A program made the position numbers and the translations under genes. Shown here piece by piece: positions 2,731 to 56,015 of a stretch of 64,000 bases of DNA. Positions within the stretch are counted from its first letter, which is position 1. The number at the start of each line of letters is the position of its first letter. A model generated the notes under the pieces. That model saw nothing but the letters and a program-made list of their open reading frames with translations. It searched no databases and was not told the DNA's origin. Source of the DNA: an uncultured delta proteobacterium (GTDB lineage Bacteria > Desulfobacterota > Binatia > JACPRU01); NCBI GenBank assembly GCA_963712515.1, contig CAVQIG010000002.1:9408-73407 (forward strand). Direction: 5' to 3'.

Positions 2731-2944
2731 TCAGTTTGTCCTCCCCGTATATGTGGCGCCGCCTAGGGCGCAAGCTGAGCTACGCGCGCTAACGGCCTCC
2801 TTGAGACAGCGCGCGTGATCCCCAGCGCCAAGTTAGGCGTCACTCCTCAACGCTTGCTTAACAACATCTGCAACCGTGTTCCTGCCAATCCCGCGCCGTT
2901 TGCAGTAACTCGACTCAATCCAGAGGGAGAGTTTCTTTGTTCCT

Positions 2945-3217
2945 TTACTTGAATTGCAAGACGGCGCAGCATCTCGCGATATTCTCTCGAGTAACAATTC
3001 TCGCGTCGTTAATGATGTGCTCCCACGTCGCGACAGTTTTTCGCGATCTGTCCGCGGGGGGCGACTCAAGCATCGGGATTCGGCAGTAGACGCACTCCTT
3101 ATCTCGCTGCCGCACCTCACGCTCAAGCCACGCCGGGATGCCCCATTTGTTCATTCGATCGCTCTGCGTAACGCCTAACGTATGGGCTTTTATCCGTAGT
3201 CCGGCGGGCGAGAGCAA
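2945..3217 (-). CDS. small HNH endonuclease
   Basis: CVYCRIP...TWEHIIND (Cys/His HNH-like motif); 90 aa; lower GC; sits between mrr and the dedA fragment. Confidence 0.5.
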   Translation of the reverse strand: MLSPAGLRIKAHTLGVTQSDRMNKWGIPAWLEREVRQRDKECVYCRIPMLESPPADRSRKTVATWEHIINDARIVTRENIARCCAVLQFK

Positions 3218-3239: not shown

Positions 3240-3533
3240 CAGGAACGCGCCGATCGATCCGGTGACGGAGGCGACGAAGACGTAAACCGTGCCTCGGGCG
3301 AGCCCGAAGATCGCGCCGGCGGTCAACGTCAAGAGCGCCGCGGGCACGAGCGCGATCACCGCGACCGCGTAGCCGAGGATGAAGACGAGCGGTCCCCACG
3401 GCCCCAGCCGATCGACCCACGCCGCGAACGCCGGCACGTAGCCGCCCGCCCGCCGTCCGAGCACGGCGAGGATCGCGATCGCCGCGAGCGCGACGAGCCC
3501 GCGGGCCGCCGTCACCCGGCTCAAAGATGCCAT
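3240..3533 (-). pseudogene. DedA/TVP38 family membrane protein, N-terminal fragment only
   Basis: LTLTAGAIFGLARGTVYVFVASVTGSIGAFL matches the TVP38/DedA core; homology stops ~100 aa in, where the ORF runs into the HNH gene region. Confidence 0.5.
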
Positions 3534-3960: not shown

Positions 3961-4089
3961 GCAGATTATCGGCGACCGGATACCGCCAGCGACCTGGCGG
4001 TGCGCTTGCGGGGCCGGAAGCCGGTAGGCGGGCCGTCCATTCATCCGAGCGACAGGAATCCCCCCTTGGCGAGCGCGAAGCCGAGACCG

Positions 4090-4539
4090 GGAAAGATGCC
4101 TCGCGACCTTGAAGCCGAAGCCGACGATGAGAAGCCCGATACCGAGCATCAGCATCTCCTGGCCCTCGCCGTGACGCGAGACACGCGCGGCGACGGCGTC
4201 GAGCCACGTGCTCGCCGTCCCGCCGTAGACGAGAGCGATGCCGAAGAGCAGGAACCCGGTCGCAAACGCGCCGAGGAGAAAGTACTTGAGCGCCGCCTCG
4301 TTGGAGCGGACCTCCTGGCGCCACACGCCGGCCAGCACGTACACCGCGATCGACATCACCTCGAGTCCGAGAAAGATCACGATGAGGTCGGTCGCCGCGG
4401 CCATCATCATCATCCCAGACGTCGCGAACAGCACCAGCGAGTAATACTCGCCCCCGCGCACGGAGGTGGTGGTGAGAAAGTCGACCGCCATCAGAACGGC
4501 GAGAATACTCGCGACGCAGAACAGCAGATCGAAGAACAC
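4090..4539 (-). pseudogene. nuoN: NADH-quinone oxidoreductase subunit N (NuoN/ND2), N-terminal ~150 aa fragment
   Basis: FLGLEVMSIAVYVLAG...SNEAALKYFLLGAFATGFLLFGIALVYGGT is diagnostic for NuoN; after ~150 aa the ORF degenerates into non-protein-like sequence overlapping the cupin gene. Confidence 0.6.
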
Positions 4540-6308: not shown

Positions 6309-8654
6309 ATGCGCTGTCCAGCCTGCGGGCACGAGAACACGACGGGCGTAAAGTTCTGCGGCGAGTGTGGTGCATCGCTGAAGCTCGAGTGCTCGAGCTG
6401 CGGCTTCGAGAACGCGCCCGGAATCAAGTTTTGCGGCGAGTGCGGGCGGCGGCTCGCTGAATTCGCGAAGCCAGCGCCAGCGCCCGACCCACGCGCGTAC
6501 ACGCCGAAGCACCTCGCCGAGAAGATCCTCACCTCGCGCTCCGCTCTCGAAGGCGAGCGCAAACTGGTCACGGTCCTCTTCGCGGACGTGAAGGGGTCGA
6601 TGGATCTCGCCGAGCAGGTCGATCCCGAAGAGTGGCACAAGATCATGGACCGCTTCTTCGCGATCCTCTCCGACGGGATCCATCGGGCACCCAGGTTCTT
6701 CGTGTGGTGAACTTCCGCCCCGAGTATCACGCCCGCTGGATGCAGAAGTCATACTACCAGCAGCTTCCGCTCCTCCCGCTCAATCCGGAAGCGATCGCGG
6801 AGCTGCTGACGGATCTTCTCGGCAACGATCCGTCGCTCGCGGGTCTCGGAGGCCTGATTCGTGAGCGAACGGGCGGAAACCCGTTTTTCATCGAGGAGGT
6901 CGTCCTGTCGCTCGCCGAAGCCGGAAGTCTCGAAGGGTCGAAGGGCGCCTACAGACTGACGAAGCCGATACACGCGGTCTCGATTCCGCCCACCGTCCAG
7001 GCCGTTCTCGCCGCCCGGATCGATCGGCTTCCGGAGAAGGAGAAGCGAGTCCTCCAAACCGCGTCCGTGATCGGGAAGACGTTCTCGGAGCCGGTCCTAA
7101 AGCGCGTCGGGGAGCTTCCCGAGACGGAGCTGGCCGACGCTCTGCGGGCGCTGATTGACGCCGAGTTCCTCTACGAAGAGGCGCTCTATCCAGAGGCGGA
7201 GTACGCGTTCAAACACCCCCTCACCCAGGAGGTCGCCTATCGCTCGCAGCTCACCGAGCGAAGAGCCCGCGTCCATGCCGCGGTCGCGCGCGCGATCGAG
7301 GAGCTCGAGTCGGGGAAGCTCGGCGAGCGTGCGGCGCTTCTCGCCTACCACTGGGAGCGTGCGGGCGACGCTAGGGAAGCGGCGAAGTGGCATCGCCGCG
7401 CGGCCGAGTGGGTGGGCCTCAACAATCCCTCTGAGGCGCTGCGGCACTGGGGGAGTGTGCGGGAGCTCCTGGACGTGCTCCCGGAGACGCCGGAGAGCCT
7501 CGCCGAGAGAGCAGCCGTGCGCGCCCTGATCATGAATCACCTCGCTCGTATGGGCGATCTGGAGGACCAGGCGACCTCGCTGTTTCGAGAAGGACGGGAG
7601 CTCGCGACACGGAGCCGCGATCCTCACGTCCTCAGCCAGGTCCTGAACGGATTCGGCAGCATCCGGCTCTATGCTGGGGCCGTCGCAGAGGCCCTGGACC
7701 CGCTTCTCGAGGCGATTCGGCGCGCCGACGAGACGGAGGATGTGGGTTCGAGAGTGGTGGTTCGGTACGGCCTGTCCATGGCCTATTTTTTGGCTGGGCG
7801 GCTCCGCGACTGCCTTGCCACTGCGGAGGAAGGTCTCGGGCTCGCTCGGGGAGATCTCGACCTCGGCGCCGATCGACTCGGGTTTAGCCCGAGCCTCGGC
7901 CTCTCGTTTGTGCACGGCGGTGCGCTGAGCCTGACGGGGCATCCTTGCGAGGGCGCAACCGAGCTCGACCGGGTGATCGAGCTCGCGCGCACGTCTCAGC
8001 AGCTGGTGCCGCTCTGGAGCTCGCACGGTTATCACATCCTTCGCTGTGAGGTCACGGGCGAGGCAGTGCCCGCCCTGGCGCACGGCCGACAGGCGGTGGA
8101 CTACGCGGAGCGGACGGGGCACCAGAATGGGCGAATCTTCGCCTACCTCAACCTCGGGCTCGCGAACGTCTTGAACGGGACATGGCATGATGCGCTCGAA
8201 GCCCTGGGAACGGCATTGACGATCGAAAGGGAACGTCGGCTTTCGGCGCTCGAAGGCGGCGTGCTCGCGGTGATAGCGGCGGCGCATCTCGGCCTCGGTG
8301 ATCGTGCAAGGGCCTTGACGCTCGCGGAAGAAGCGAATCGCCGTCTGCCGGCGGCGCGGCGCCCGACTCTGGGAGTTCTCGGCTCTACTCACCCGAATGC
8401 GCGCTCTCCGTGAGACCCTGGGCCTCCAGGCGACGAGAGAGATCGAGGCTGCGCTCGCCGAAGCCGACGCCTGGCTCGAGATGTCGGGCGCGAAGAGCTA
8501 CGAGCCCTTCCTCCACGTCGAGCGCGCCGAGCTGGCCCGTTTGAGGGGCGACGAGGTCGCACGCGAGCGCGAGCTCCGCGAGGCGCACCGCCTGTTCCTC
8601 GAGATTGGCGCTCCGATCCGCGCAGAACAGGTCGCGAAGGAGCTCGCCGGATGA
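6309..8654 (+). pseudogene. double-zinc-ribbon / adenylate-guanylate cyclase / AAA ATPase / TPR signal-transduction family gene with internal deletion and frameshifts
   Basis: N-terminal CPACGHEN...CGECG x2 zinc ribbons, start of cyclase domain (KLVTVLFADVKGSMDLAE), then jump to the late AAA region and TPR repeats in a second frame (6632-8413), C-terminal tail in a third frame (8397-8654). Confidence 0.6.
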
Positions 8655-8939: not shown

Positions 8940-10387
8940 GCTTTCTGCGGAGCTCAGCGACGTCCGGCCGCATGAGCGCCGTGAGCCCCACTCCAGATTC
9001 GTTCCACTCGTAGGAGAGGAGGAGCGCCTCGAGGCGTTCGCGGCCCTCCGGCGTCTTCGCAGCCTCGCGCGGGGTGAGATTTCCGAGGGCCGGGATCTCC
9101 TCGTCGAACCAGGCTTCCCATTGGCGCCTCGCCATGGCCTTCACCTGCGCTTGCACCTCGGGGAGCGACTCGATTCGTTGACTCTCGTCTCGCCTCCGTC
9201 TGTCGCTTGCCGTTTCCCCTCGCTCGGCTCGTTCCTCGATCATCTTCTCGATGGTGCTCGTCACGGCTCGCTTGAAGACCACTCGCCCCGCGAGCCGGCG
9301 CTCGATCTCCGAGCGGATCTTCTCGGCACGCTCCCGGGAATTCACCTCGGCGGTGAGCCGCGCACCATCGATCGCGATCCGCCCGAGGGCCGTGTTCTCC
9401 ATGCCCTTGTGCAACTTGTTTCCCGCTCGGAGCCAATTGAACGAGATGGCGCGAAGCTCGTGTCCCTCGCCGTAGCGAGCTTCGGAGAGAAGCTCTTCCT
9501 CCGTGGCTCCCACGGCCAGGGTCTCTAGGGCTTCGAACGCCTCGCGCGGTGACGCCGAGAGATCGAAGTACATCTTCGTGGGGACGAGCGCATCTCCGTC
9601 GGTGTTCGCGAGCTTCGGGAGCCGGGGGTGCAACATCTCGTCTTCGATTTCGAGATAGAGCTCGCGGATCTCGCCTTCGAACTCGCGGAGGTGCTCCAGG
9701 GTGAGCGCCCGTCCCTGATCGACGAGCTGCTCGCGAAGGTCGATGATCCTGCCCCGGTGAATCGGCGGGATCTCGAACGGCGAACAACCGTGGATGATCG
9801 ATGGGCCGTCGAGCGTGAGGACCCTCGCGTAGAGGATCGATCCGCGCCGTACCGTCTCGCTCGCCGAGCGATCGATCACCGAGACTTCCCGGTGCGTCAG
9901 GATGTCCGAGAGACGGAGACCTCTGCCGGGCTCGACCGCGAGAGTCGAGTAGAAAGAGAACCGACAACCGGACGCTGCGAGAACGAAGCGCTTCTCGAAG
10001 TCGTCGAGCTTCACTCGCGGGTCCTCGAGGTAGGCGAGAGCGGGAGGCTCTTGGCGGCAAGCGTCGAGCCTTCGCTTCAGGCTCGCCCGGATCGGGACTC
10101 CAGATGAAGAGAAACCAGGGAACGAAGGTGGTCGGAAAGTCCGGATGATCTCTCGGAGCTACGTCGACTTTCAGACCGAGGAGAAATTCCTCCCAGGCGG
10201 CCTCGAGCAAGCCTTCGCCATATCGATCCAGCGCGTAGCGAAAAAGCTCGCCGGCAAACCGGTCATCCGCGCGCCGCAAGCGCCGCCACTCGAGATCCGT
10301 TGCTTCCTCGCGTACGAGGCAGCAGTGCTTGTACTTCTTCCCGCTGCCGCACGGGCAGGGATCGTTGCGGCCGATCTTTCTTCTCAA
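8940..10387 (-). CDS. SEC-C motif (SecA C-terminal metal-binding domain) protein, one apparent frameshift near 10090
   Basis: N-terminus RNDPCPCGSGKKYKHCC; body continues in second frame (ORF 8389..10014) with protein-like sequence to ~8940; true 3' end uncertain. Confidence 0.5.
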
Positions 10388-46770: not shown

Positions 46771-47565
46771 TCAGCGGTACGGCGTGAAGTCCGGTTTTCT
46801 CTTCTCGTTGAACGCCTCTACGCCTTCCCGCGCTTCGGGGGTCTTGACGAAGAGGTCGAGGCTGTCGAAGGCCATTCCCCCGATCCCTGCGATCGACTCG
46901 GTGTCGGCGTGGAAGGAGTGCTTGAGCGCCCTGAGCGCGTAGGGGCTCTTGTCGAGCAACTCGTCCGCCCAGCGTCGGACCTCGGCCTTGAGCTCGGAGA
47001 GGGGCACGACCTTGTTCACGAGACCCCACCGCTCCATGGTGGCGGCGTCGTACACCCGGCAGAGATACCAGATCTCTTTTGCTCGTTTGTCGCCGACGAT
47101 TCGCGCGAGGTAGGCGCTCCCGAACCCGGCATCATAGGAGCCCACGCGGGGGCCGGCTTGCCCAAACCGCGCGTGCTCTGCGGCGATCGTGAGGTCGCAG
47201 AGGAAGTGCAGGACGTGCCCGCCGCCGACGGCCACGCCATTCACCGCGGCGATGACGGGTTTCGGGATCTCGCGGATGATGCGGTGAACAGACTCGACCT
47301 CGAAGAGCCCGGTCTCGGTGGGGCCGTAGTCGCCCGTCTCCTGCCGCTGCTTCTGGTCGCCGCCCGCGCAAAATGCCTTGTCCCCCGCTCCGGTGAACGC
47401 GACGACTCCGACGGTCTTGTCCGCCCACGCCGCCTTGAAACACCGGAGCAGCTCGTCAATCGTCCGCCCTCGAAAGGAGTTAAACCGGTCGGGGCGGTTG
47501 ATCGTGATCCAGGCAAGACCTCGATCTACCTCGTAGACAACATCCGTCAGCTCACTCAGGTTCAT
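46771..47565 (-). CDS. menB: 1,4-dihydroxy-2-naphthoyl-CoA synthase (crotonase superfamily)
   Basis: AFCAGGDQKQR, VAVGGGHVLHFLCDLTIAAEHARFGQAGPRVGSYDAGFGSAYLARIVG, C-terminal EAFNEKRKPDFTPY closely follow MenB. Confidence 0.8.
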   Translation of the reverse strand: MNLSELTDVVYEVDRGLAWITINRPDRFNSFRGRTIDELLRCFKAAWADKTVGVVAFTGAGDKAFCAGGDQKQRQETGDYGPTETGLFEVESVHRIIREIPKPVIAAVNGVAVGGGHVLHFLCDLTIAAEHARFGQAGPRVGSYDAGFGSAYLARIVGDKRAKEIWYLCRVYDAATMERWGLVNKVVPLSELKAEVRRWADELLDKSPYALRALKHSFHADTESIAGIGGMAFDSLDLFVKTPEAREGVEAFNEKRKPDFTPYR

Positions 47566-47986
47566 AACGACTCCTCCTATGATGGCACTCCTGCGGGACC
47601 GATTCCCGCTGATCCACCTCGACGAGAAAAAGTACGTTCGAGTACGTATTCGGCCGAACATGAACGGTCATTCCGGGTGAAACCGAACAAAGCGCTTGCA
47701 CCTGACGGGCGCTGTACCATCAAAGGAAGCCGTCCGGTTGTGGACTCGTACACTTCTCGCCCGCACGTGAAGCGCGGAGATAACACTCAGAAATAGCGTG
47801 TTATCTGTCGAGAAGATATTGCTCTTAACGCTACTTGGATTATGATATTTTTTGGGTGGCGTCGTGGATGTCGCGTCTCGTATGAACGCGCGGAAGAACT
47901 ATGAAGATCTGGCCTAGTCGTCAGCATCTATCGGACGTTCACTGGTGCACCAGGAATCTGCGACGCCTCCCAAATCACTTGGATAG

Positions 47987-49858
47987 ATGGCCATGCCTGA
48001 TCATGCTGGTTTTGCCGCCGCGATCACGGTGCGCGAGCAAGTCCTGAGGACCGCCCTGCAGTCCGGGTACGCGAACGGGTCGGACGCCGGCAAGAAGTTC
48101 ACCGAGGACCTGTCCGATTCCGCGCTCGGGATGGAGCCGGACCTGTTCCTCGGCCGGCCGGACCTTAACTGCGAAGGGTCGACGAACCTGTTGGTCGCGA
48201 CCATGCCCATGTGGGGTACGGTCAAGGTCACGCAGAGCGGCGTCGAACACCTGGTCCAGATGGTCGGCGAGATGGAGCTGACCTTGACGCCGGATTTCCG
48301 CACAGGCCCGCCCGGGGCGGACCGGAAGACGGCCGTCGAGCTCGATCCGTCCACCACCACCATCACCGCCCGCCGCTGGACGGCGACGGTGACATCCAAT
48401 GCGACGCCGCCTGCGGTGGCCACCCTGATCACGGGAAACGATTTCCGGACCCGGTTCGAGGCCAAGTTCCGCCAGGGCGTTTTGTTCGGGAAGATCGCCC
48501 TGCCATCGATCGACGCGAGCTTCCTGGGCGGCGTCGTGGCCAAGGCAACCGAAGCGTTCGGGCGCGTGCGCAATGGGGTGCTGCTGATCGGGCTGACGTA
48601 CGTCGACGCGGACCACAACCTCGTCGGCGACCCGGACAACCTGCAGGACTTCGCGGGCAGCAACGATGTCGCCGGCGTCGTTCACAAGGACGCGGCTGAC
48701 ATCATGCTCGACGAGCTCCACGCGAAGCTGGTCAAGGGCGTCGAGGACGGAGGCGCCTCGCTCGACAGCTTTTCGGTGCGTCCGCGGGACGGCTACTTCT
48801 ACGTCAGCGGCGCGGTGAGCAAATCCTCGGGCACTGTGAACTTCTCGTTCCGGGTAGTGCCGTCAATGTCCCACACCCGTCCCGGCGCGTACTTCCAGTA
48901 TGTCTACAAGCCACGGCGCGTGCACAGCCGCACCTGGCCCGCGCTCGATTTCCACATCGAGGGCGTCGACACGGACGCGGACCGCGCGTGGTGGGTGATC
49001 CTTTTCGGCGAGGTGATTCTTGGGATCGTGACGCTCGGATTGTCGATCATCTATGTTGAAGGCATGGTTGCCGCCGCGGCCTCGGCCTTCGGGGGACGGA
49101 TCAAGTCGGCCAAGGCGGGCGCGCCCGCGAACCGGATTCGCAAGACGATTCCGCCGCCGGGCGGGGTGTCCGTGCGGGTCGGCCTGGACCAGTTCGAGAT
49201 CACCGACAGCGGCGTCTTCATCGGGATCTCGGTGCGGGCCACCCCTTCGCCAGCGGTGCTGTTCGGACCGACGACGGTGCCGTCCGACTACGCCTTCGAC
49301 GGAGCGCGGTACATCCTGCGGCCGCCATCCGGGATCTCGCCCAATGACCCGGCGCTGCGGATCCGCTGGATCCTGGAGGACCGCAATGCTGGGACGGTGC
49401 TCGTCGATTCAGATGGGCCAGCGCACGGGCGCCTGCGCTTCGACTTCGTGCCCGGGTCGTTCGCCGCTTCGGATTTCGGCGTGGTGGCACGTCTGTACCG
49501 ACAGCTCGGGGTCGAGGTGACTGACCTCGCGACGCAGTCGGTGAACTTGCACATGCGCTCTTCTCTGCCGCCCGGGGCGTACGTTCGGTGGCGGTGGCAG
49601 GGGTCGAACCCGCAGCTGCAGGTCATTGCGGCCACGGATACGTGGTACTACTCCGGCGACATCCAGGTGAACCGGTGGTCGGAGTGGCACCGCACCGACC
49701 AGCCCTGCCTGGCGGTCAACGCGGACGCGCGCTACCGGTACGACTACCAGACCGCCAACCGACTGCCCTTCTCCCTGCGGCTCCTGGAGAACCACCGCAA
49801 AGGCTTGTGCCCCTATTGCTTCTATGGCGGGCCAGCGGGAGTCAATCCGGCGTTGTGA
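47987..49858 (+). CDS. large uncharacterised protein with one central TM helix
   Basis: 623 aa intact high-GC ORF; no signal peptide; single hydrophobic helix (AWWVILFGEVILGIVTLGLSIIYVEGMVAAAASAF) splitting ~330-aa and ~250-aa soluble halves; preceded by ~200 bp of unusually AT-rich DNA (47790-47990). Confidence 0.5.
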   Translation: MAMPDHAGFAAAITVREQVLRTALQSGYANGSDAGKKFTEDLSDSALGMEPDLFLGRPDLNCEGSTNLLVATMPMWGTVKVTQSGVEHLVQMVGEMELTLTPDFRTGPPGADRKTAVELDPSTTTITARRWTATVTSNATPPAVATLITGNDFRTRFEAKFRQGVLFGKIALPSIDASFLGGVVAKATEAFGRVRNGVLLIGLTYVDADHNLVGDPDNLQDFAGSNDVAGVVHKDAADIMLDELHAKLVKGVEDGGASLDSFSVRPRDGYFYVSGAVSKSSGTVNFSFRVVPSMSHTRPGAYFQYVYKPRRVHSRTWPALDFHIEGVDTDADRAWWVILFGEVILGIVTLGLSIIYVEGMVAAAASAFGGRIKSAKAGAPANRIRKTIPPPGGVSVRVGLDQFEITDSGVFIGISVRATPSPAVLFGPTTVPSDYAFDGARYILRPPSGISPNDPALRIRWILEDRNAGTVLVDSDGPAHGRLRFDFVPGSFAASDFGVVARLYRQLGVEVTDLATQSVNLHMRSSLPPGAYVRWRWQGSNPQLQVIAATDTWYYSGDIQVNRWSEWHRTDQPCLAVNADARYRYDYQTANRLPFSLRLLENHRKGLCPYCFYGGPAGVNPAL

Positions 49859-50227
49859 CCGTCGCGGTCCGTGCGCTCGATGAGCACTGGCCTGCACGCG
49901 TGGATGGGAACTGATATGGAACGATCCTTCGTCAAGTGTCGACGGCGGTCGTTCACTCTTATACATCCTCCTTCTGCCGGAGCCCGCAGTCGTGGGAGCT
50001 GGGTCTCATCAGCCGACCGAGGCCCCGCTCCCTTCGCCGCTCCATGCTCGCGAAGGGCGGCCCAGAGAAAGCCGCTGAGCTCGCGCCCCACCGCCGTCAC
50101 GGCCTTGTTGTGAGCCCTCCCGTGCGTGACCAAGTCGCAGTGGGCGTTCAAGGCCACTCTGAATCCTCGGCCTACCCCTTTGCGAGGTGATCGGCCCGGC
50201 GGTGTCGTCACAGTGCCGATCGTGGCT

Positions 50228-55514: not shown

Positions 55515-55899
55515 CCGAGTTGGTAGTTTCCGGAAGCCGGTTGTCGATCACACCCAAAGGGGTACGATCTCCGGGCCCTGCTATGTCGGCCCGCCGCTAT
55601 GCAAGCGCTCATTTCGCAGCGTTCGGCTGTCGCCTACGACTGATACGTTTTGATCGTGGAGAGGTGAGTGCTTGGTCATTGCGATGTTTCGCCTTTGCCC
55701 GCGCGGGCAGACACAGTCACCGCGCGCGTTCAATGCGTCAGTCGGGCGAAAACGCCCCCCATACTGGATCGATTCACCCGATCGTCGCTCTTTTCCTACA
55801 GACGTACATTGTCTTTGGCAGCTCAGGGTAGCCGTCGATATGTGAGCAACAAACCTTAACCTTCACAAATTGGTGGGCGTGAAAAGAGCGAGCGCAAAA

Positions 55900-55935
55900 A
55901 ATGTATCGCGCGTTCCAGAGAAGGTGCGATACATT
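55900..55935. promoter_or_regulatory. 10-bp perfect inverted repeat (aatgtatcgc-N16-gcgatacatt), candidate operator
   Basis: Read directly from sequence, ~80 bp upstream of the 56016 ORF in a lower-GC intergenic region. Confidence 0.4.
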
Positions 55936-56015
55936 GCGAGGGGGATGGCCCTGGGGGAGGCCGTTCGTTGCGACGTAAGAGGCGAGAACACGCGTAAGAA
56001 GCGAGAGAGGAGTTT

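Follow-up and report, generated by a model that had tools for sequence, protein, structure and literature searches.

Why does a gene with the codon bias of its high-GC genome stand behind an exceptionally AT-rich tract, and what does it encode? The question is raised by a 64,000-nucleotide (nt) stretch of contig CAVQIG010000002.1 from an uncultured delta proteobacterium (the window), in which a first-pass annotation had pointed out an intact open reading frame (ORF) of no recognizable family behind a promoter region of anomalous composition. We found that the tract contains a conserved leader RNA, which is followed by the gene for a protein of 621 amino acids (aa) whose N-terminal half is predicted to adopt a double-TULIP fold. 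We consider it likely that the leader is a cis-regulatory element, riboswitch-like or protein-binding, that it controls a predicted membrane-associated lipid-binding protein, and that promoter, leader, and gene have spread horizontally as one unit. The positions of the features are listed in Table 1.

Table 1. Features of the leader RNA, its gene, and the flanking DNA, with positions in the window.
Feature	Position	Strand	Basis or remark
Inverted repeat GATAACAC-N11-GTGTTATC	47779..47805	.	Perfect 8-nt arms, ~50-75 nt upstream of the predicted transcription start
Sigma-70-like promoter	47819..47846	+	-35 TTGCTC 47819-47824, 16-nt spacer, -10 TATGAT 47841-47846
Conserved structured leader RNA, 124 nt, four-way junction P1-P4	47854..47977	+	Covariance model and covariation
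P1 (long)	47857-47869 pairs with 47956-47968	+	Alignment fold
P2 hairpin	47870-47891	+	Alignment fold
P3 hairpin, variable, closed by GAAC/GUUC	47896-47940	+	Alignment fold
P4 hairpin, invariant palindrome CUGGUGCACCAG	47942-47953	+	Alignment fold
Linker/expression platform	47969..47992	+	Pyrimidine-rich CCC/CU after P1, Shine-Dalgarno-like UGGAUAG 47980-47986, conserved (A/G)UGGCC, then start
Coding sequence, 621 aa	47993..49858	+	Conserved start; maximal ORF from 47987 = 623 aa
N-terminal double-TULIP (BPI/CETP-like tubular lipid-binding) domain	48011..48976	+	Residues ~9-330, predicted structure
Central hydrophobic helix, residues 335-368, WWVILFGEVILGIVTLGLSIIYVEGMVAAAASAF	48989..49090	+	Conserved Glu342, Gly351, Glu358
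C-terminal beta-sandwich (Ig/FN3/MG-like) and His-Cys3 cluster	49136..49834	+	Sandwich residues ~384-590, model
3' flank shared with L002	49857..49899	+	Includes small hairpin 49857-49869

A conserved, structured leader RNA in the AT-rich tract

The composition of the tract should be noted first. A drop to about 45% GC in a genome of about 68% had been described at 47790-47990; the actual values are 48.3% for this segment and 65.6% for the window, but the lowest-GC 200-bp stretch of the whole 64 kb does fall in the tract upstream of the TULIP gene, and only 0.03% of the 200-bp windows in the 64 kb are as low in GC as the flagged one. The dip is composite, with 33% GC at 47779-47853 and 56.5% at 47854-47977, compared with 66.5% in the coding sequence. 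The native codon bias noted earlier for the gene is borne out by this last value and by the GC content at third codon positions of ORF 47987-49858 (87%). About 60% of the flagged 200 bp is structured leader RNA, and a curved or UP-element-like promoter, which had been offered as the cause of the low GC, was therefore rejected as the sole one. The sequence of the element is constrained by its function, and its GC content stays at 0.45-0.61 in loci whose own GC content ranges from 0.38 to 0.73, so that the leader looks AT-rich in a 66%-GC genome. The local dip is thus explained jointly by the leader RNA and the 33%-GC promoter/operator stretch. For genome scanning, the implication is that where GC falls locally in a high-GC genome, the cause can be an RNA under sequence constraint and not only a promoter. 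Only two further 200-bp dips with a GC content of 0.52 or below are found in the window, at 2801-3101 and 55731-55961 (minima 0.495 and 0.515); given the content of the first dip, they may be candidate places for constrained non-coding elements.

The leader was aligned in 17 sequences (17-19 distinct leaders are readable overall), drawn from genomes, metagenomes, and eight more contigs encoding homologues. On the four-stem structure, 94.4% of the cells are paired, whereas the value falls to 30-43% when the partners are slid by 1-3 columns, and none of 500 shuffles matched the observed percentage paired or the observed covariation score. Nine pairs, comprising 27 cells, are altered on both sides, as at columns 5/118 (GC in 12 sequences, AU in 5) and 10/113 (CG in 10, UA in 5) in P1 and at column 20/36 in P2 (GC in 14, AU in 2). 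The distal part of P3 differs in length and sequence, yet the hairpin is formed in every aligned sequence. About 45 positions are invariant across phyla, and the junction and loop nucleotides are nearly so. The minimum free energy (MFE) fold of the window leader alone recovers all four stems (z = -2.45), and the four stems are the MFE fold of most of the 15 leaders that were folded separately. With the covariance model, the window copy reaches 134 bits on the plus strand and 16 bits on the minus strand; the model finds exactly one copy within the 64 kb and a copy at 82-128 bits upstream of every family gene read. Both the frequency of G-U pairs and the strand asymmetry speak for RNA and against duplex DNA. 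The leader is therefore a strand-specific, covarying RNA structure.

This RNA had not been catalogued before and is missing from Rfam 15, none of whose 4227 families gave a match at E ≤ 10 over 47560-48060; nothing was called at the leader at the gathering thresholds in the window and six loci, and the conserved strings of the RNA retrieved nothing relevant from the literature searched. Three other interpretations of its details were rejected. An AUG inside P2 opens ORFs of 6, 11, or 35+ codons depending on the locus, and a leader peptide is hence not conserved. A UGAACG/CGUUCA pseudoknot competes with P2 and P3 and has no informative variation. A type III toxin-antitoxin or retron-like RNA was discarded, as there are no repeats and no nuclease or reverse transcriptase domain.

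The AT-rich promoter that had been proposed is present as the hexamer pair given in Table 1. A strict sigma-70 consensus scan called no promoter at this site, because the -35 hexamer matches the consensus at only three of six positions; the pair is recognized instead by its position across loci, which is how the promoter prediction called for earlier was answered. In all high-GC loci, an aTTGCy/TAnnnT pair stands at a fixed position, ~7-12 nt ahead of the RNA element, and at the promoter position in low-GC loci there is a TAnnTTTG box instead, which we take to be a Bacteroidota -7 type promoter. Since the hexamers keep a fixed distance from the element, the leader RNA would start at about +1, and the transcription start in the window is predicted from the promoter position to lie near 47853-47854. 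The inverted repeat further upstream is the most AT-rich part of the tract, inside the 33%-GC stretch. It is found at the equal relative position in a Pyrinomonadaceae locus (L002) and was not seen in the more distant loci compared; it may be a candidate site for a dimeric regulator.

The leader is not confined to the window. When 400 nt were read upstream of homologues in metagenome-assembled genomes (MAGs) of Chloroflexia, Pyrinomonadaceae, and Lewinellaceae, a block of ~125 nt nearly identical to 47854-47977 was found in all three. The leader is present before every family gene with readable upstream DNA, in 18 distinct loci besides the window, and these loci span at least five phyla (Acidobacteriota, Chloroflexota, Actinomycetota, Bacteroidota, and Pseudomonadota). 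An exact 18-mer scan of genomes gave 24 loci, among which six distinct ones have the real motif, the remainder being coincidences in coding sequences; in a pattern scan of metagenomes, three of seven instances were real. The isolate genome of Nitrosospira sp. Nsp11 (L023, on NZ_FRBV01000004.1) carries the leader, at 4016-4138 of this locus, together with an intact family gene.

Over 78 locus pairs, the mean identity is 0.76 for the leader RNA, 0.59 for the nucleotides of the coding sequence, 0.39 for its third codon positions, and 0.54 for the protein. These values indicate that selection, not recency, conserves the leader, which is under stronger purifying selection than the gene downstream. 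The RNA accompanies the gene and is the more conserved of the two, pointing to tight functional coupling.

In comparisons with distant loci, similarity at the nucleotide level sets in at 47852-47859 and does not go beyond the stop codon, and that to the closest foreign locus, L002, spans 47778-49899. The hairpin in the shared 3' flank, GACCG-UCG-CGGUC, overlaps the stop codon and is GACCA-UCG-UGGUC in L002 (~9874-9886), a compensatory change. No U-tract follows it and no terminator was called there; terminator-like matches lie only outside the unit. The protein gave no match in the plasmids, phages, or viral contigs searched, the leader none in plasmid or phage collections, and a repeat search around the unit revealed no flanking or terminal repeats. 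Leader and coding sequence thus form a self-contained monocistronic unit that looks horizontally spread. The 370-nt gap between the TULIP gene and a convergent hydrolase gene holds a 129-aa ORF at 49822-50211 on the minus strand, which has no Pfam match and a weak match to the C-terminus of IS110 transposases (NF033542, E = 0.022, profile positions 305-341 of 343); it may be a scar of mobile DNA beside the unit. In a betaproteobacterial MAG (L022, 2123-3972, CAWKMH010000048.1), a break near residue 157 divides the family gene between two frames, and P2 of the leader carries U in place of G, whereas the nearly identical copy in Nitrosospira sp. Nsp11 has an intact gene; the break reflects either pseudogenization or an error of long-read assembly.

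Fold and topology of the encoded protein

The intact ORF of 623 aa reported earlier is present at 47987-49858, though the conserved start shortens the protein by two residues. In homologues, the protein starts from the second Met (MPDHAGF...). The in-frame codon two positions before it reads AUA in L002 and UUA in L046, neither of which is a start codon, and 47993 is accordingly the likely start. Searches of Pfam, NCBIfam, PHROG, and PDB sequences with the protein gave no match at E ≤ 10, and a PADLOC scan against models of anti-phage defense proteins gave one insignificant match (E = 0.02, 12.8 bits). A search of 5.8 billion clusters retrieved 111 homologues with 43-93% identity, the full-length ones being nearly all 612-628 aa and none having a Pfam annotation; where a source is named, it is Pyrinomonadaceae, Sphingomicrobium, or Phaeodactylibacter. 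When 1.84 billion representatives were searched with a profile, the set grew to 331 clusters (50% identity) at E ≤ 1e-3, and the full-length members (~600-705 aa) among the 150 clusters listed match the profile end to end. Ten divergent relatives gave nothing in Pfam at E ≤ 0.1, and a search that started from the divergent relative P0188 returned only P0188 itself.

The absence of a recognizable family thus holds for the sequence databases but not for the fold. The AlphaFold2 model, built from a 40-sequence alignment (predicted local distance difference test [pLDDT] score 83, predicted template modeling score 0.79), consists of two folded halves. A Foldseek search with the model returned CETP (4.5e-12), followed by BPI, LBP, OrfX3, OrfX2, P47, and YceB, and 321 residues of the model align to full-length CETP. 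A pattern of a helix and long strands repeats at residues 11-166 and 189-329, corresponding to two tandem TULIP domains in a BPI-like pseudo-dimer, and the defining architecture of such domains, a long helix wrapped by a curved antiparallel beta-sheet with a tubular hydrophobic cavity, is seen in the model. By sequence, the protein matches none of the curated TULIP families at E ≤ 10 (LBP_BPI_CETP, P47, DUF4403, DUF2140, DUF2993, and DUF1439). Foldseek against viral structures gave generic Ig-like matches only.

The layout described in the first-pass annotation, in which two soluble halves are divided by one central hydrophobic helix and a signal peptide is missing, agrees with both the hydropathy profile and the model. 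In the Kyte-Doolittle profile with a 19-residue window, the peak (2.47 at residues 337-355) is the only window above 1.6, the maximum elsewhere being 1.38, and there is no signal-like region at the N-terminus of the protein. The 34-residue hydrophobic helix is conserved in all 40 sequences; in the model, helix 341-368 has low confidence (pLDDT ~46-66). The charges flanking the helix, averaged over the 40 sequences, are -2.65 on the N-terminal side and +4.6 on the C-terminal side, which predicts an N-out/C-in orientation. This orientation would need export of the 334-aa N-terminal domain without a signal peptide, and the bitopic arrangement proposed earlier is therefore doubtful. The helix may anchor the protein in the membrane or act as an insertion element; if it forms a monotopic hairpin or inserts only conditionally, both halves and the Cys cluster would lie in the cytoplasm. 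As for function, an anchored lipid-binding protein or a toxin accessory fits better than the sensor that had been suggested beside an anchored enzyme or toxin.

About 65 columns are invariant in the 40 sequences, including His568, Cys574, Cys608, and Cys611 in the context WSEWHRTDxPC ... LCPYCFYGGP. The same H/C/C/C pattern is found in the five distant relatives that were read, and the four residues likely form a Zn site. On the basis of the model, the protein is predicted to bind a lipid or other hydrophobic cargo at a membrane.

The eukaryotic double-TULIP proteins BPI, LBP, and CETP are 6-12% identical to the bacterial protein. BPI and CETP have neither the hydrophobic helix nor the beta-sandwich domains nor the His-Cys3 cluster, all of which are present in the bacterial protein; the bacterial family in turn has no signal peptide and no match to the LBP_BPI_CETP Pfam family. 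OrfX2, OrfX3, and P47, and likewise TipA-TipB of Bdellovibrio, are bacterial TULIP proteins with beta-sandwich partners. Unlike the clostridial OrfX/P47 and the TipA-TipB genes, the present gene is monocistronic and lies outside a toxin or predation operon, and its product has no sequence similarity to the P47/OrfX Pfam families. To our knowledge, no leader RNA has been reported for the OrfX2/OrfX3/P47 or TipA-TipB genes. OrfX3 paired with OrfX1 is among the Foldseek matches (PDB 8fbd and 8bgm). In Bdellovibrio, the double-TULIP protein TipA is opened by its small beta-sandwich partner TipB (bioRxiv 10.1101/2025.09.09.675085). By analogy, the fused beta-sandwich of the present protein would fit this theme of a TULIP protein with a beta-sandwich partner. 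The bacterial TULIP families P47, OrfX2, YceB/DUF1439, DUF4403, DUF2140, and DUF2993 are exported or envelope-anchored (PMC6791001). The last four are lipoproteins or N-terminally anchored (PMC6791001), whereas the present family has its helix in the center and no N-terminal signal or anchor. It would represent a new bacterial family of BPI/CETP-like double-TULIP proteins, marked by the missing signal peptide, the central helix, the fused beta-sandwiches, and the His-Cys3 cluster.

How the leader may act

The leader ends ~15-25 nt before the Shine-Dalgarno (SD) sequence, and in 14 of 15 loci the element begins 135-146 nt before the start codon. In the MFE fold of the window, CCC 47969-47971 pairs with the 5' GGG 47854-47856 to lengthen P1. 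In several high-GC loci, a CU-rich tract that abuts or overlaps the 3' strand of P1 is complementary to the SD sequence (CUCCUCA/UGAGGAG in L040, CACUCC/GGAGUG in L047, and CUCCUCU/AGGAGGA in L044), and in L045, UUCCUCC lies within the 3' strand of P1. Low-GC loci have a run of 4-9 U after P1. This pattern suggests control of ribosome access, and perhaps also of termination in low-GC hosts. The specially regulated expression anticipated for this gene was right in spirit, but the mechanism is read here as RNA-based.

In the proposed mechanism, the promoter would be followed by the 124-nt four-way-junction leader and then by the 621-aa protein. The leader would bind a small ligand, as a riboswitch does, or a protein, possibly its own product, and in hosts that use SD sequences, it would set translation initiation. 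The pyrimidine-rich anti-SD tract would pair either with the RNA 5' end, extending P1, or with the SD sequence. The N-terminal double-TULIP domain would bind or transfer a lipid or other hydrophobic cargo, and the single hydrophobic helix would hold the protein at the membrane or insert the protein into it. The C-terminal beta-sandwiches with their His-Cys3 cluster, which probably holds Zn, would serve as a partner or adaptor module.

Several observations weigh against a regulatory leader of a membrane-associated lipid-binding protein. The aligned leaders are alike (effective sequence number 1.34) and are few, and the covariation therefore rests on few events. The anti-SD/SD layout varies among loci, with the U-run replacing the CU tract in low-GC hosts, and because of this non-uniformity, the direction of regulation cannot be inferred. 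P1 has 12-15 bp and is GC-rich; it should therefore be stable without a ligand, unlike the P1 of a typical P1-gated riboswitch. The leader is linked to one gene family, a single protein family following it in 18 of 18 further gene-bearing instances. Linkage to several families is typical of riboswitches, though not strictly defining, and the single-family linkage fits autoregulation or a structural role as well as metabolite sensing. In an Actinomycetota MAG (L012, 7441-7566, CAVUCQ010000004.1), an intact leader (122 bits) is followed by no family gene in the next ~430 nt, the stretch ending at 8000. Its similarity to the related loci L034 and L040 stops right after P1, and it may be what a deletion left behind, or it may serve another gene. 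On the protein side, the TULIP assignment comes from a predicted structure at ~6-14% sequence identity, and the membrane topology signals contradict one another.

What the leader would recognize is the main point on which the explanations differ. It is quite possible, though short of an even chance, that the leader is a new metabolite or ion riboswitch, in which a ligand bound in the junction would stabilize the extended P1, tie up the anti-SD tract, and turn translation on; in a low-GC variant, P1 and the U-run would terminate transcription. The junction of several stems, its nearly invariant loop and junction positions, and the variable P3 at the periphery are what a riboswitch would have, as are the location in the 5' untranslated region (UTR) with P1 adjoining a CU-rich anti-SD tract, the conservation across at least five phyla well above the neutral expectation, and the lack of a match to a known RNA family. 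Such a switch is harder to reconcile with one gene family only, with a very long and stable P1, and with expression platforms that are inconsistent among loci, and no ligand can be proposed from the gene context since the neighbors are not conserved. Somewhat unlikely, in our estimate, is an autoregulatory protein-binding site, at which the encoded protein (for example, through the His-Cys3 cluster acting as a knuckle) or a host factor would bind P2 and P4 to repress or activate translation. The strict co-occurrence of leader and gene in the 18 further gene-bearing loci speaks for this explanation; neither the P4 palindrome CUGGUGCACCAG nor the C-terminal LCPYCF motif varies, and the stability of P1 suggests that the RNA is a platform folded in advance for binding, not a switch. 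However, no RNA-binding domain is recognizable by sequence or fold, the role of His-Cys3 as a nucleic-acid-binding knuckle is conjecture, and L012 keeps an intact leader without the gene. The leader has features in common with both orphan riboswitch candidates and protein-binding leaders, namely a covarying multi-stem 5' UTR structure, an invariant junction and loops, and a variable peripheral stem. It differs from orphan riboswitch candidates and ribosomal-protein leaders in that it precedes one protein family only, has apparently been carried with that gene across at least five phyla, and has an unusually long P1.

Explanations without sensing have less in their favor. We regard it as improbable that the upstream block is an mRNA stabilizer, a translation enhancer, or a DNA-level site for recombination, attachment, or an operator. 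Base pairing at the transcript's 5' end is predicted to begin with +1, and base-paired 5' ends are known to protect bacterial mRNAs; the unit also appears to move between genomes, and the weak IS110-like remnant lies just downstream. A stabilizing hairpin, however, needs no four-way junction with ~45 invariant positions, the G-U pairs and the strand asymmetry favor RNA, and the unit has neither flanking repeats nor plasmid or phage matches, nor does the protein occur in viral contigs. An ordinary intergenic promoter region in front of a lineage-specific orphan ORF is extremely improbable. Intergenic regions of high-GC genomes are commonly lower in GC, and the window has two other dips below 52%, but the block is 62-94% identical across phyla with covariation, and the ORF has 111 close homologues and 331 profile-level clusters.

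A bolder form of the regulatory-leader explanation is that a membrane-inserting BPI-like TULIP protein is gated by a riboswitch of a new class or by an RNA that senses an envelope, lipid, or infection signal. We consider this form unlikely; if true, the unit would be a single-gene, RNA-gated module for membrane remodeling or disruption (for example, of a stress or abortive-infection type) that keeps its own sensor and has spread by horizontal transfer across at least five phyla. This widespread and strongly conserved RNA is directly testable, because it is short (124 nt) and occurs in the cultured Nitrosospira sp. Nsp11. The coupling of leader and gene is not explained by known riboswitch or TULIP biology, and it offers a handle on bacterial TULIP proteins that are synthesized in the cytoplasm.

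Neighboring genes

Conserved neighbors had been suggested as a check on this gene. None was found in the twelve loci compared, where the neighboring genes differ in every locus. The gene immediately upstream on the minus strand (46771-47565), previously called menB, encodes a MenB/BadI-like crotonase. Its scores are 339.9 versus 380 and 314.9 versus 342.7 for MenB, and 329 versus 468 for BadI; being below every equivalog cut-off, it is not securely assigned as MenB. A linkage between MenB and the TULIP gene was rejected because the neighbor differs from locus to locus.

Phosphatase-type genes (Metallophos, PhoX, and Phosphoesterase) lie within a few genes in four of the twelve loci (L001 9890-12522, L045 7997-9946, L047 679-1452, and L002 1-456). 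Their presence may be chance, or it may hint at lipid remodeling under phosphate limitation. Defense-type neighbors, comprising a TIR_2 protein directly upstream, AbiEii, and a ResIII/restriction endonuclease, are found in three loci, all low-GC (L004 6240-7391, L039 8010-8864, and L037 5584-7370), and not in the other nine. In the 73%-GC locus L040, a match to the ASdes small RNA of Rfam (RF01781, 47 bits) lies at 3367-3434, inside or antisense to a fatty-acid desaturase gene, which suggests that this contig comes from a Mycobacteriales-type actinobacterium.

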